DNA of 14,429 nucleotides from a virus (lineage: Duplodnaviria > Heunggongvirae > Uroviricota > Caudoviricetes). The notes beneath the pieces were generated by a model. The model did no database searches and was not told the DNA's origin. It was given only the letters and a program-made list of their open reading frames with translations. The first letter of the stretch is position 1; every line of letters starts with the position of its first letter. Below, piece after piece: positions 1-13,414 of the stretch. The position numbers and the translations under genes were made by a program. The stretch lies in the IMG/VR virus record IMGVR_UViG_2630968766_000006, positions 1-14,429 of that record, one strand, 5' to 3'.

Positions 1-1221
1 ATGGCGGGCACTAACAAGCTGAGTGATAAAAAGCTAAAGGCGCTACAGGGCGTTGAACGTGATGCGCCTGCAATGTTTGCCGATGGCGAAGGATTGAGCG
101 CGAAAGCCTCCCGGCAAGGCCAATTAAGCTGGGTGTTTTCGTATCGGCTTGGTGGGCGTGGTAGCCGTCTGGAACGTCTGACACTTGGCCGCTACCCGGA
201 TATGTCGCTAAAAGCCGCGCGCGAAAAACGTGAACAGTGTCGGCAATGGCTGGCAAACGGCCATGATCCTAAAACCGAGCTGGTACTGAGTACCGAAGAA
301 ACGCTTAAGCCGGTGACGGTCAAAGATGCGCTGGAATACTGGTTAACAAAATATGCCAGGAAAAAGCGCACCGATGAGGAGCTGGTTAGAGCACAGTTGC
401 AAAAGCACATCTACCCGCGTCTTGGTCATTATCCGCTTACCCGCTGTGAAACTCGCCATTGGGTGGCGAGTCTGGATGAAATAGGTCAGAAGCAGCCAAA
501 AACAGCGGGGCGCATGTTCCAGATCTGCAAACAGGCGTTACGGTTCTGTAAGGTTCGCCGTTACGCTTCCAGTGATGCCCTTGCCATTCTCACCATTCAG
601 GACGTTGGCGAGCCTTCCGGCCAGCGTGACCGCGTGCTATCCGATAGAGAGCTGGCGGATGTGTGGCGCTGTACTTATAGCGATGACCAGCAAGCCTACT
701 ACCTACGGCTTTTAAAAATTCTGGTGCTGTTTGGCGCTCGAACGATGGAAGTGAGGCTGTCACGCTGGTCGGAGTGGGATTTTCATTCATGGATCTGGAC
801 GGTTCCCAAAGAACACAGCAAAACTCGTGAAAAAATTGTGCGGTCGATTCCCGAAGGCATCCGCCCATGGCTGGAAGAATTGAAAAGGCAGACGGGTAAA
901 ACGGGCCTTTTATTGGGTGAGGATCGTACTCGCCAATCGGTGTCACTTAAAGGGCGCAGATTGTATAAAGATTTTCACCATAACGAGCCGTGGACGCTTC
1001 ACGATTTACGCCGGACGTTTTCCACAGGGCTAAACAATATGGGGATTGCGCCGCATATCGTCGAGCTGCTGTTAGGCCATGCTTTGCCGGGAGTGATGGC
1101 GATTTATAACCGTAGTTTGTATCTGCCGGAGAAGCTGGACGCGTTGAATAAATGGTATGAACGTTTAGAACTGTTAATCATGGATTCATCTAATATTATC
1201 ATGTTGAATAGAGGAGCTTGA
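1..1221 (+). CDS. int: Tyrosine site-specific integrase, P4-like
   Basis: 406-aa ORF; C-terminal catalytic region with HDLRRTF...LLGH...AIYNRSLY pattern typical of tyrosine recombinases (R, H-x-x-R, catalytic Y); N-terminal arm-binding-like domain. Last ~60 nt are AT-rich unlike the rest of the gene. Confidence 0.9.
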   Translation: MAGTNKLSDKKLKALQGVERDAPAMFADGEGLSAKASRQGQLSWVFSYRLGGRGSRLERLTLGRYPDMSLKAAREKREQCRQWLANGHDPKTELVLSTEETLKPVTVKDALEYWLTKYARKKRTDEELVRAQLQKHIYPRLGHYPLTRCETRHWVASLDEIGQKQPKTAGRMFQICKQALRFCKVRRYASSDALAILTIQDVGEPSGQRDRVLSDRELADVWRCTYSDDQQAYYLRLLKILVLFGARTMEVRLSRWSEWDFHSWIWTVPKEHSKTREKIVRSIPEGIRPWLEELKRQTGKTGLLLGEDRTRQSVSLKGRRLYKDFHHNEPWTLHDLRRTFSTGLNNMGIAPHIVELLLGHALPGVMAIYNRSLYLPEKLDALNKWYERLELLIMDSSNIIMLNRGA

Positions 1222-1222
1222 G

Positions 1223-1882
1223 ATGGTTAGTTTTATTAAACTCGGCATTTTTGAAAGGGAAGCTAAAACACCAGCACTAAATATTAAACAGCTCTCATTG
1301 TTGCTATGTGGTGAAAGTCCAGATTTAAAAACCGCAGAAATACCAGATAATAAAATCGAAGCATATAATATTTATTATAAGCACATAGGAAAGTGGTTTC
1401 AGTCATCTGGGGTATTTAAAGGGGGGTATACAGTACCACAGTCAGCCGATTACATGTTCGCAATGGCTTACCCAATGATAGACGAAGAACTAACCCCTGA
1501 GCCTATCAAGCGGCGTTGCCTTGAAGCGGTTGCTTCTATAGCTGGTAAAAAAAACGGTAAAGATCTGTTATTAGTTCTTGGGGGAGAGGAATTATATCTC
1601 AAAGGTGTTGAGCTAAGTCGTAATCAGCGGGGGTTACATCGCAAAGAAGATGAACAAGATAATTCAGCAAAGTTGATTGGTTTAATGGCCAAGCTACTGG
1701 CTAAAAAAATAGGACACTCATATGGCAGTGTTGATAAACCAATAACATCTGCTATTTATAATGATATTATTAAAATTGCTGACGATGAGAAAATATCAAA
1801 GAGAGGATTATCAAAATCTACCGTCTATAAAAAATTTTCTGATGCCTCCGCGTTGTTGTCAGTGAACGATGATATGGAATGA
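1223..1882 (+). CDS. Hypothetical protein (219 aa), AT-rich cargo gene with C-terminal HTH-like motif (ISKRGLSKSTVYKKF)
   Basis: ATG at 1223 two nt after int stop (TGA 1219-1221), GAGGAG Shine-Dalgarno at 1211-1216; long ORF in a markedly AT-rich segment (about 1150-2170); no antisense ORF of comparable length; C-terminal segment resembles Hin/resolvase-type HTH recognition helix. Confidence 0.6.
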   Translation: MVSFIKLGIFEREAKTPALNIKQLSLLLCGESPDLKTAEIPDNKIEAYNIYYKHIGKWFQSSGVFKGGYTVPQSADYMFAMAYPMIDEELTPEPIKRRCLEAVASIAGKKNGKDLLLVLGGEELYLKGVELSRNQRGLHRKEDEQDNSAKLIGLMAKLLAKKIGHSYGSVDKPITSAIYNDIIKIADDEKISKRGLSKSTVYKKFSDASALLSVNDDME

Positions 1883-1919
1883 TGAACAATCAACAACAAA
1901 GCTCATGTTGGGTATCGTT

Positions 1920-1966
1920 GCATAATCTGCATAATCTGCATAATCCACAAAATTTGCGAATTATGC
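1920..1966. repeat. Tandem 9-bp repeat GCATAATCT x3 (1920-1946) plus inverted copy ATTATGC (1960-1966)
   Basis: Read directly: gcataatct gcataatct gcataatcc, then attatgc 14 bp downstream. Confidence 0.8.
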
Positions 1967-11505: not shown

Positions 11506-11516
11506 GGCGGTACGAA

Positions 11517-13190
11517 ATGGAGGTTAATCACGTCTGGCATCAGTACGCCGTTGACGTTAAAGAGGGCAAAATACCCGCCTGTAACGCGTTAAAACAAGCC
11601 GTAACCCGGTACTTTTCGGACTTAAACAACCCTGTTTATCTGTTTGATGCTGCCATTGTTGAGCGATTTATCAGGTTTTCCCGATATTGTCCGCACGTTA
11701 AAGGCCCACTGAGAGGCAAGCCGATCTTACTCGAGCCGTGGCAGCAGTTCGCCTTTGCTAACATTCTGGGCTTTAAGGTGAAAGCCACCGGGCGGCGCAA
11801 GTACCGCAGCGCCCTGATTGTGATCCCGCGTAAAAACGCCAAATCCACCAAGGCCGCGATTCTGGCTAACTGGTTTTTGCTCAAAGAGGCGGGGCAGCAG
11901 GATATCTACACGGCGGCGGTGAGTCGTGATCAGGCGCGGATCGTGTTTGATGATGCCCGCCAGATGTGCTTACTTTCCGCCCCGTTCAAAAAGCGGCTGG
12001 CGATTCAGCAGCATAAAATCACACACCCAAAAACAAACAGCCTGCTTAAGCCACTGGCGGCGAAGTCCTCCACCATTGAGGGCACCAACCCCAGCCTGTC
12101 AATTGTGGATGAGTATCACCTTCACCCGGATAACACGGTTTACTCCGCGCTGGAGCTGGGAATGGGCGCGCGCCCGGAAGGGCTGTTATTCGCCATTACC
12201 ACAGCAGGTACAAATACTGTTTCGGCCTGCAAGCAGCTTTACGACTACTGCAAACAGATTTTGTCCGGGGAAGAGGAAAACGAGAGTATTTTTGCGCTGA
12301 TCTACGAACTGGACGATGAAAAGGAAATTGACGATCCCGCCGCCTGGGGAAAAGCCAATCCCAATCTGGGGGTAAGCGTGCTGGCGGATGCACTGGCCGA
12401 TACCATCCAGAAGGCGCGGGGTATCCCGTCCGAGTGGAACGAAATGCTAACCAAACGTTTTAACATCTGGTGCAACGGTACTACCGCATGGATGGGGGCG
12501 GGAATGTGGGCCGATTGTGCGGCGGAATTTTCTTTTGATGATATGGCGGGGCGGGAATGCTTCGCCGGTCTGGATCTTTCTTCCACCGACGACATTACAA
12601 GCGTCTGTTACTCCTTCCCTCACGGCGATAAGGTTCGTGTTCTGTCGCGTCACTATATCCCCGAAGCCGTGCTGGAAGATCCGGCGAACAAAAACCGCAA
12701 TGTGTACAGGGCATGGGTAAAGCAGGGCTGGATCACCGCCACGCCGGGGAACTGCATCGACTATGACCGCATCCGGGATGATATTTTCGCAGATAGCGGG
12801 CGTTTCAGCCTGAAATTAATCGGCTTTGACGTCTGGAACGCCACGCAGCTACGGACGCAGCTACAAAATTACGGGCTGGATGTAGAGCCGTTCCCGCAAA
12901 CTTTCGCCCGCTATAACCCTGTATGTAAAAGTCTGGAGGTTTTCGCCGCCCGCCAGCGCATCGAGCACAATGGCGATCCGGTATTAGCCTGGGCGATGGG
13001 TAACGTAGTGATGATGGTTGATGCTAACCACAACCTGAAACCCAACAAATTAAAAGCACCGAACAAAATCGATCCGGCTGTAGCCTGCCTGATGAGCTTT
13101 GGTGTGTATCTCCTGGAGTTCGGTGATGTTGATACACCGATGAGCGATGAGCACAAAGCGGCACTGGAAAGCGTGGCTGGTGGAATTTGA
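11517..13190 (+). CDS. terL: Terminase large subunit
   Basis: 557-aa ORF; ATPase P-loop-like VIPRKNAKSTKAA, Walker B-like SIVDEYH, C-terminal nuclease-type region; size and position typical. Confidence 0.9.
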   Translation: MEVNHVWHQYAVDVKEGKIPACNALKQAVTRYFSDLNNPVYLFDAAIVERFIRFSRYCPHVKGPLRGKPILLEPWQQFAFANILGFKVKATGRRKYRSALIVIPRKNAKSTKAAILANWFLLKEAGQQDIYTAAVSRDQARIVFDDARQMCLLSAPFKKRLAIQQHKITHPKTNSLLKPLAAKSSTIEGTNPSLSIVDEYHLHPDNTVYSALELGMGARPEGLLFAITTAGTNTVSACKQLYDYCKQILSGEEENESIFALIYELDDEKEIDDPAAWGKANPNLGVSVLADALADTIQKARGIPSEWNEMLTKRFNIWCNGTTAWMGAGMWADCAAEFSFDDMAGRECFAGLDLSSTDDITSVCYSFPHGDKVRVLSRHYIPEAVLEDPANKNRNVYRAWVKQGWITATPGNCIDYDRIRDDIFADSGRFSLKLIGFDVWNATQLRTQLQNYGLDVEPFPQTFARYNPVCKSLEVFAARQRIEHNGDPVLAWAMGNVVMMVDANHNLKPNKLKAPNKIDPAVACLMSFGVYLLEFGDVDTPMSDEHKAALESVAGGI

Positions 13191-13210
13191 TAATTTAAGG
13201 AGTATTTCTG

Positions 13211-13414
13211 ATGAAACTGACCCGCAAAGAACTCGACATAGTCAGTGCCATAACACGGCAGTACCGACAACACCATGCCGGAGCCGATCGCCGTGAGATT
13301 ATGGAGACGTTTAACCGCGCCCGCGCCACCGTTCTGGAGATGCGCCGGAATACTCAAGATTACGCCAGCGATCTGCCGGCCTTTGTCTGGAGGAAAACCC
13401 CGCCGAGACGGTAA
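13211..13414 (+). CDS. Hypothetical small protein (67 aa), last gene of the island
   Basis: ATG 13211 with AAGGAG RBS at 13196-13201; basic, Arg-rich; no recognisable motif. Confidence 0.45.
   Translation: MKLTRKELDIVSAITRQYRQHHAGADRREIMETFNRARATVLEMRRNTQDYASDLPAFVWRKTPPRR

Follow-up and report, generated by a model that had tools for sequence, protein, structure and literature searches.

When a stretch of DNA carries phage head and packaging genes and no tail genes, is it a satellite that builds its own capsids, or something else with the same genes? We asked this of the IMG/VR virus record IMGVR_UViG_2630968766_000006 (Caudoviricetes; positions 1 to 14,429, the whole of this 14,429-nucleotide stretch being called the window), which an initial annotation, made from the letters alone, had read as a capsid-forming phage-inducible chromosomal island (cf-PICI). 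We consider it very likely that the window is nearly the whole of a 14.08-kb Salmonella enterica cf-PICI, integrated at hpt, in which the major capsid gene is interrupted by an amber codon and transfer has been lost. The family call agrees with the initial annotation and is carried by all 11 core components and their order, the size of 14.08 kb, a duplicated attachment (att) site and a 64% capsid match to the Protein Data Bank (PDB) entry 9GYI. The cf-PICI family was described in 2022-2023 and occurs in some 13% of Enterobacteriaceae genomes. The element adds one new, ordinary member to this known and very common satellite family, and its gene content is not news.

Boundaries, gene content and family of the hpt island

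By exact-protein look-up the source locus was located in several assemblies of Salmonella enterica, in which all sequence overlapping the window is 100% identical to it. The left flank in these assemblies is acnB-yacL-speD-speE-yacC-cueO-gcd and the right flank is hpt-can-yadG-yadH, the DNA past both island ends being core chromosome. In one island-free Salmonella assembly gcd lies directly next to hpt, and comparison with this empty site defined attL and attR, as the initial annotation had suggested such a comparison might: a 19-nt block of identity, ATGAAACAYNNYGTAGAAG, is common to the empty site, attL and attR, and corresponds to the first 19 nt of hpt. The junctions are the following:

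attB, the empty site in the island-free assembly: ATGAAACATAGTGTAGAAG
attL, 187-169 nt left of window position 1 and outside the window: ATGAAACATACTGTAGAAG (from junction comparison)
13893-13911, plus strand: attR core, ATGAAACATTCTGTAGAAG, the first 19 nt of hpt and the true right end of the island
13893-14429, plus strand: host hpt, reconstituted by the island (Pfam Pribosyltran; junction sequences)

From attL core to attR core the island measures 14,080 bp, which lies within the ~10-18-kb range of cf-PICIs, for which a median of 14 kb and 19 proteins has been published (PMC10085698). The element had earlier been taken to end at 13414; it runs about 500 nt further, to attR at 13893-13911, and attL falls outside the window altogether. 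Tail genes just beyond the window were looked for and none was found, the flanks being the core genes gcd and hpt.

Within these boundaries, the plus strand of the window is almost entirely coding. The right part holds the head and packaging genes:

6934-8100, plus strand: major capsid gene, HK97 fold (Pfam Phage_capsid over two open reading frames, ORFs), with TAG at 7741-7743, codon 270 of 388
8143-8697, plus strand: prohead serine protease (Pfam Peptidase_S78 PF04586, 9e-46)
8699-9898, plus strand: portal protein (Pfam Phage_portal PF04860, 6e-93), start according to public gene calls
9895-10230, plus strand: head completion or head-tail adaptor protein (Pfam Phage_HCP PF05521, 3e-25)
10227-10520, plus strand: gp6-like head-tail connector (Pfam Phage_connect_1 PF05135, 1.7e-12)
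10520-10876, plus strand: HNH endonuclease, 118 aa, intact (Pfam HNH PF01844)
10873-11022, plus strand: 49-aa ORF between the HNH gene and terS (called in public assemblies), 43-49% conserved in several islands
11152-11505, plus strand: small terminase, P27 family (Pfam Terminase_4 PF05119, 8.6e-24)
11517-13190, plus strand: large terminase (Pfam TerL_ATPase PF03354 and TerL_nuclease PF20441)
13211-13414, plus strand: 67-aa ORF of the variable region that follows the packaging operon, with no family match and not conserved in related islands

The Pfam matches of the protease, portal, adaptor and connector are all full-length. The short HNH protein belongs to a natural length class of 118-122 aa, which by alignment also occurs in Frischella and Avibacterium islands. 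A GTG start at 8597 for the portal gene was rejected as an over-extension, since gene callers use 8699, and the long minus-strand ORF at 7024-8331 was set aside as a shadow of the capsid gene. Against the PDB, which is without a deposited cf-PICI portal, the portal protein matched phage and gene transfer agent (GTA) portals only.

The integrase, alpA and primase-helicase genes and the head and packaging genes named in the initial annotation are thus all confirmed by Pfam, and its statement that tail, lysis and repressor genes are absent also stands: Pfam, PHROGs and NCBIfam gave no tail, holin, endolysin or CI-type repressor family among the window ORFs, and no window protein contains a membrane-spanning-like hydrophobic segment of the kind seen in holins. 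The SatelliteFinder model for cf-PICIs defines 11 core components and forbids tails and holins (PMC10085698), and the proteobacterial order is capsid-protease-portal-head connectors followed by hnh-terS-terL (10.1101/2022.09.08.507074). All 11 core components are present as genes in the window, in the published proteobacterial order, and the forbidden tail and holin components are absent from it. The features by which cf-PICIs are otherwise recognised, namely an integrase at one island end, AlpA, a primase-replicase, HNH, terS and terL (10.1101/2025.02.11.637232), are likewise all there.

The closest relatives of the capsid protein point in the same direction. Read through the stop, it matches the cryo-EM structure of the EcCIEDL933 capsid (PDB 9GYI) over its full length at 64% identity (E 4.5e-148), the next-best PDB match being the RcGTA capsid (4e-50), and HK97 was not reported among the PDB matches. 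In a phage collection, identities of ~70% for capsid and TerL were reached only by records of 3.8-16.5 kb and by one chimeric-looking record of 106.5 kb, with TerL about 70% identical to the cf-PICI-like records, whereas genuine phages reach at most 39% for the capsid and at most 37% for TerL. A capsid-profile scan, with one genome per species, found 80 loci in Enterobacterales and Pasteurellaceae, and wherever a related locus from these groups has enough DNA (~60 loci), it shows the same gene order. Judged by its sequence relatives, the capsid gene is of the cf-PICI lineage and not of a phage lineage. Single genomes of Xenorhabdus anantnagensis and X. innexi hold this capsid family at five or more different places each, an unusual multiplicity of cf-PICI-like elements; these multiple copies are without the exact 25-mer of the operon leader described below.

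These data also bear on two other origins for the same set of genes. The first is an ordinary HK97-like prophage from which the tail, lysis and immunity genes have been deleted, and it could account for head and packaging families that are common to HK97-like phages and for HNH, TerL, portal and adaptor proteins that are 25-39% identical to those of HK022. However, the exact att duplication and the clean empty site indicate that nothing has been deleted at the ends, and there is no tail module, lysis cassette or immunity repressor inside the att-bounded element. Furthermore, the gene order is the reverse of that in HK022 and is kept, together with int-alpA-pri, in ~60 loci from two bacterial orders, and identities are at most 39% to phages as against 64-70% to characterised cf-PICIs. 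A match of the structural proteins to defective prophages would have favoured this origin, but they match satellite lineages (46-89% identity to the cf-PICI KpCIDSM30104), with phages at 25-39%. We regard a prophage remnant as highly improbable.

The second is a classical PICI that forms no capsid, or a P4-like satellite that remodels the capsids of its helper. The left half, with int-alpA-pri, the Icd-like genes and DUF4222, is common to both kinds of element, and an E. coli element with a RepA helicase matches the interval from 2590 to ~4260 at 96.5% identity. The portal, adaptor, connector and terL genes, whose presence excludes classical PICIs (PMC10085698), speak against it, as does the failure of Pfam, PHROGs and NCBIfam searches to find sid, psu, delta or Rpp-type genes, and we give this origin next to no credence. 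The cf-PICI assignment is kept in what follows.

The interrupted capsid gene

The initial annotation had described the head set as complete and as building its own capsids, and this part does not hold: an in-frame TAG at 7741-7743 breaks the capsid gene. The stop splits the ORF into 269 aa and 109 aa, and the Pfam capsid match continues across it in the same frame, with 6934-7743 covering profile positions 1-159 and 7771-8100 covering positions 170-279; at the lesion the reading is ...CTG AAA TAG AAA TAC... The position of codon 270 is occupied by K, S, A or R in 120 homologues and by a stop in none, and Ser is the residue in the closest relatives from Salmonella. Among intact islands the nearest one, which also lies between gcd and hpt and whose packaging module is 92.6% identical, carries TCG at codon 270, so the lesion amounts to a single C-to-A change. 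Both capsid fragments are found on 17 contigs, one of which is a 4.77-Mb chromosome, and in some assemblies the NCBI annotation leaves the capsid gene uncalled. Given these 17 contigs, the lack of a stop in any homologue and the 100% identical assemblies, the amber codon is real, is not a sequencing error and is fixed in a clonal Salmonella lineage.

The stop removes the C-terminal 119 of the 388 capsid residues. In EcCIEDL933, mutating each gene of the packaging module except the hypothetical gene 1792 abolished transfer, and replication was unaffected (10.1101/2022.09.08.507074). Since capsid mutants of EcCIEDL933 lose transfer, we infer that this copy is unable to form capsids and probably cannot transfer. 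All other genes look intact, which argues that inactivation was recent, and the island is a recently inactivated, vertically inherited member of its family. The loss of an intact capsid gene, and with it the ability to form its own capsids, affects the function of this copy and not its ancestry.

The island could instead be a fully functional cf-PICI, in which the TAG is read through, suppressed or tolerated, capsids are made and the island spreads. All its other genes are intact, its regulatory and cos-like elements are conserved and the allele occurs in many assemblies, all of which would fit such an island. On the other side, the assemblies compared do not differ at all over the window (100% identity), a pattern that suits clonal descent rather than transfer; none of 120 homologues has a stop at this position, and the stop takes 119 of 388 residues from an HK97-fold protein; capsid mutants of EcCIEDL933 lose all transfer (10.1101/2022.09.08.507074); and a search for tRNA genes in the window found none. 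We consider full function unlikely.

For the inactivated island, which we prefer, several points nevertheless weigh the other way. The remaining genes look intact, as seen from the full-length Pfam matches and the HNH check, and recombination with a related island could reverse the lesion. The predicted loss of transfer assumes that there is no amber suppression, read-through or complementation by a second cf-PICI. The exact Ser270 form of the capsid protein is absent from a collection of 15 billion proteins, which leaves the immediate intact ancestor undocumented. Finally, what we propose below on induction, helper identity, capsid size and cos cleavage for this island rests on homology.

By homology with EcCIEDL933 and KpCIDSM30104, a helper prophage would turn on alpA, and Int and AlpA would then excise the island. 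The primase-helicase would replicate it, starting at the iterons that directly follow the primase-helicase gene on the 3' side. The capsid, protease and portal proteins encoded in the island's morphogenesis operon would give rise to small T=4 capsids of the HK97 fold. HNH, TerS and TerL would cut the island's own cos upstream of terS so that unit-length DNA is packaged, and the adaptor and connector would dock helper-phage tails. In this copy, the C-to-A change that converts Ser270 (TCG) to amber would be expected to leave excision and replication in place and to abolish capsids and transfer.

A natural capsid-null allele and an intact, 92.6%-identical relative at the same site form a ready-made pair with which to study the effect on the host of a cf-PICI that does not leave. 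The case also indicates that calls of complete modules from gene content need a check of ORF integrity.

Conserved non-coding elements and the remaining genes

Comparison across the family localises two conserved non-coding elements, a structured leader of the morphogenesis operon and a cos-like site, neither of which we found described in the accessible cf-PICI literature:

6803-6933, plus strand: structured leader, ~130 nt before the capsid start codon (alignment and RNAalifold)
11027-11115, non-coding, between the 49-aa ORF and terS: candidate cos, a G-run followed by ACCGCCGCCCCCTCAAATTTTTATGCGCGACGATTTTTTGAAAA

The leader is conserved at the DNA level across genera. Hairpin 1, GTGGCACTCAGACGTGAGCCGCCAC (GUGGC-A-CUCA-GACG-UGAG-CC-GCCAC), is invariant, whereas hairpin 2 varies in sequence between islands and keeps its complementarity, with compensatory changes at 8 of its 9 pairs. 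A covariance model gives 85 hits among the cf-PICI-like loci compared; in these, 98% of cells are paired and 11 of the 18 leader pairs are changed on both sides, the alignment having been fitted to this model, which somewhat favours structure. In 500 shuffles, neither the covariation score nor the percentage paired, nor the number of pairs or of cells with changes on both sides, ever came up to the observed value; slid controls had 52% paired at most. At least 119 IMG/VR contigs, most of them 14-18 kb long, contain the 25-mer of hairpin 1 without a mismatch, and in the phage collection it is confined to the three cf-PICI-like records.

The copy in the window has a minimum free energy of -53.6 kcal/mol (z -5.3), and its fold includes a third stem across the capsid ribosome-binding region; this stem (GGUUUC:GAAACC) shows no covariation, and its alignment register is ambiguous. 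An invariant UCACGUCU further downstream offers the 3' half of hairpin 1 (AGACGUGA) an alternative pairing partner. The two divergent leader sequences have a U-to-G change that is matched by a compensating change in each of its partners, the one inside hairpin 1 and the downstream one; this represents one event only, so that an alternative AGACGUGA:UCACGUCU helix is suggestive at best.

A scan of the whole window gave no Rfam match for the leader, and the leader model run on HK022 with filters off gave nothing below E = 1. The leader was accordingly dropped as a homologue of the HK022 put RNA. A promoter scan of the plus strand upstream of the leader gave no match to the sigma-70 consensus, and an ORF at 6747-6950 (TTG start, 67 aa) was rejected as a gene, its tblastn "conservation" being explained by the conserved leader DNA. 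From its conservation and pairing, we think that the leader is a cis-regulatory RNA of the morphogenesis operon. That it is an undescribed cis-acting RNA switch specific to cf-PICIs is a tentative proposal, which we hold possible but somewhat short of an even chance. If it is true, the switch could time or gate the morphogenesis and packaging operon through antitermination, attenuation or translational control.

The second element, at 11027-11115, reads GGCTGGGGGGAGG ... ACCGCCGCCCCCTCAAATTTTTATGCGCGACGATTTTTTGAAAA and is conserved from Salmonella to Avibacterium while the surrounding proteins have diverged to 50-70% identity. The record of KpCIDSM30104, which is derived from a lysate, starts 22 nt before terS and stops within the cos-like element, so that both its ends fall in this element with about 95 nt missing between them, which fits physical genome ends in this region. 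We propose 11027-11115 as a candidate cos.

The left half of the window contains the integration, early and replication genes:

1-1221, plus strand: tyrosine integrase, P4-type, with an arm-binding N-domain (Pfam Arm-DNA-bind_3, Phage_int_M, Phage_integrase)
1223-1882, plus strand: 219-aa accessory ORF of low GC (about 35-37%), whose sole match is phrog_30524 (function unknown)
1919-1945: TGCATAATC repeated three times in tandem (Tandem Repeats Finder, 100% match), some 230 nt before alpA
2175-2459, plus strand: AlpA regulator/excisionase (Pfam Phage_AlpA PF05930, 2e-10; phrog_2790, 5.6e-39)
2710-2892, minus strand: small protein of the YlcI/YnfO family (NCBIfam NF041551; DUF3950 in gene calls)
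3028-3234, plus strand: Icd-like protein 1 (NCBIfam NF033153, 3.7e-20)
3227-3628, plus strand: 133-aa ORF, a gene in public assemblies, with no family match
3606-3911, plus strand: Icd-like protein 2 (NCBIfam NF033153, 7.9e-13)
3940-4263, plus strand: DUF4222 protein (Pfam PF13973)
4260-6080, plus strand: primase-helicase, pri-rep (Pfam D5_N, DUF5906, Pox_D5)
6096-6390: candidate replication origin, AT-rich, with six exact GGTAGAYA iterons in both orientations and degenerate copies
6435-6713, plus strand: 92-aa ORF (phrog_1957, 5e-26), weakly conserved in related islands

The iteron origin of the initial annotation is borne out by its clustering. Chance would give 0.37 copies of GGTAGAYA in the whole window; there are six, all of them at 6096-6390, shortly after the 3' end of the primase gene, and 200 shuffles never gave as many. 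GC is 0.35 across this region. PICI origins usually have this layout, with iterons clustered directly downstream of pri-rep.

The 219-aa ORF at 1223-1882 gave no match in Pfam, NCBIfam or PADLOC, nor did the other small ORFs of no assigned function. The 219-aa ORF lies directly after int, and its counterparts in this place in KpCIDSM30104 (57%) and in the Rahnella, Proteus and Xenorhabdus islands are 55-70% identical to it; judging from this conservation in place and sequence, it is a conserved accessory gene. The TGCATAATC array may be a regulator-binding array, at a place where helper sensing would be expected. An ORF of 348 aa (2582-3628) was rejected as a single gene, for it spans the YlcI/YnfO gene on the minus strand, an Icd-like gene and the 133-aa ORF. 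Icd-like protein 2 carries a weak phrog_1743 "repressor" label, the sole repressor-like label in the window.

The interval 2590-4260 is a mosaic segment: the E. coli element to part of which it is 96.5% identical has a RepA-type helicase instead of the primase, whereas the nearest Salmonella cf-PICI at the same site is about 83% identical here or unrelated. The icd genes of P1-type phages are under antisense RNA control. The only Rfam match in the scan of the whole window, to the SymR antitoxin RNA, lies at 2962-3033 on the minus strand, antisense to the start of the first Icd-like gene; at 33.6 bits (E 0.004) it falls below the gathering score of 61 and is probably due to chance.

At the other end, the insertion leaves the native hpt promoter and ribosome-binding site behind at attL, displaced by 14 kb, and gives hpt a replacement 5' region at attR; residue 4 of Hpt is Ser before and after insertion, with its codon changed from AGT to TCT. 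The upstream region supplied by the island includes AACTGATAAATATCAGT, which is a small palindrome, and GAGATA, a motif conserved in islands that target hpt. A scan of the right end of the island for an hpt promoter gave one weak match (13722-13751), which is no better than shuffles. The non-coding right end also has a perfect 9-bp stem with a T6 loop at 13667-13690 (CCAGACGAC TTTTTT GTCGTCTGG); as no T-run follows on either strand, it was rejected as a standard terminator.

A decamer, GGTGTATCAA, is repeated near the ends of the island, and the copies inside the window are:

13129-13138, minus strand: arm-type repeat GGTGTATCAA, an inverted copy inside the 3' end of terL
13818-13827, plus strand: arm-type repeat GGTGTATCAA, near attR

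The decamer is present four times without a mismatch, two of these copies lying just left of the window, upstream of int. With one-mismatch copies included, six occur against 0.97 expected in the Salmonella locus extending past the window, and they are probable arm-type binding sites of the integrase.

Comparison with known satellites and phages

The hpt integration site is not new: 49 elements at hpt, catalogued by TIGER, have been published as PICIs (PMC10111431). In these, the target is likewise the 5' end of hpt, and the replacement sequence keeps hpt intact. That work treats the hpt elements as PICIs and does not discuss capsid formation (PMC10111431). The DNA of E. coli hpt islands is only about 79-83% identical to that of the Salmonella island, over parts of the element. 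An island of E. coli D8 at gcd/hpt has the same att core and layout, as have islands in Erwinia typographi, Winslowiella arboricola and Serratia fonticola, and the integrases of these last three hpt-integrated islands are 82-84% identical to that of the Salmonella island.

HK97/HK022-type temperate siphophages are the helpers and tail donors of cf-PICIs. They share with the island the HK97-fold capsid, the S78 protease and HNH-dependent cos packaging. The head-completion proteins gp7 and gp9 of HK022 show 37-52% local identity to island proteins, and the identities are 25% for the portal, 30% for TerL, 39% for HNH and 37% for the adaptor (gp9), while comparison with HK022 gave no match for the capsid, protease, TerS or connector. 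The order of the HK022 modules is opposite to that of the island, which at 14 kb, as against a 40-kb genome, is without the tail, lysis, immunity and Q genes of these phages.

The prototype cf-PICI EcCIEDL933, from E. coli O157:H7, has the same module order, with int-alpA-pri on the left, HNH-terS-terL and no tail genes. It differs in its host genus, in its published size of 15.4 kb against 14.08 kb, and in that its capsid gene is intact and its transfer demonstrated, whereas the Salmonella copy has the amber stop. Our direct protein comparison with EcCIEDL933 covers the capsid.

The most extensive comparison is with KpCIDSM30104. The "phage" vB_KppS-Ant (LR881103.1, 16.5 kb) was obtained from a K. 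pneumoniae DSM 30104 lysate, and its sequence matches the chromosome of that strain at >99% identity (PMC8006926); on the strength of this identity it corresponds to KpCIDSM30104, a cf-PICI studied experimentally (10.1101/2025.02.11.637232). All its modules are homologous to and collinear with those of the Salmonella island, with these protein identities:

Integration and replication: AlpA 89%, Pri 65%, integrase 57%, ORF after int 57%
Head: capsid before and after the stop 63% and 86%, protease 71%, portal 61%
Connectors and packaging: adaptor 46%, connector 67%, HNH 52%, TerS 70%, TerL 70%

With an integrase only 57% identical, KpCIDSM30104 probably uses a different att site, and an adaptor at only 46% predicts, for cf-PICIs, a different tail specificity (10.1101/2025.02.11.637232). 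After terL, KpCIDSM30104 has a 765-aa cargo gene where the Salmonella island has the 67-aa ORF. This gene, in a variable cargo slot, is annotated as "tail length tape measure protein" in LR881103.1; if the annotation is right, it would be a forbidden tail component for satellite finders. The two islands also share the leader hairpin and the cos-like element.

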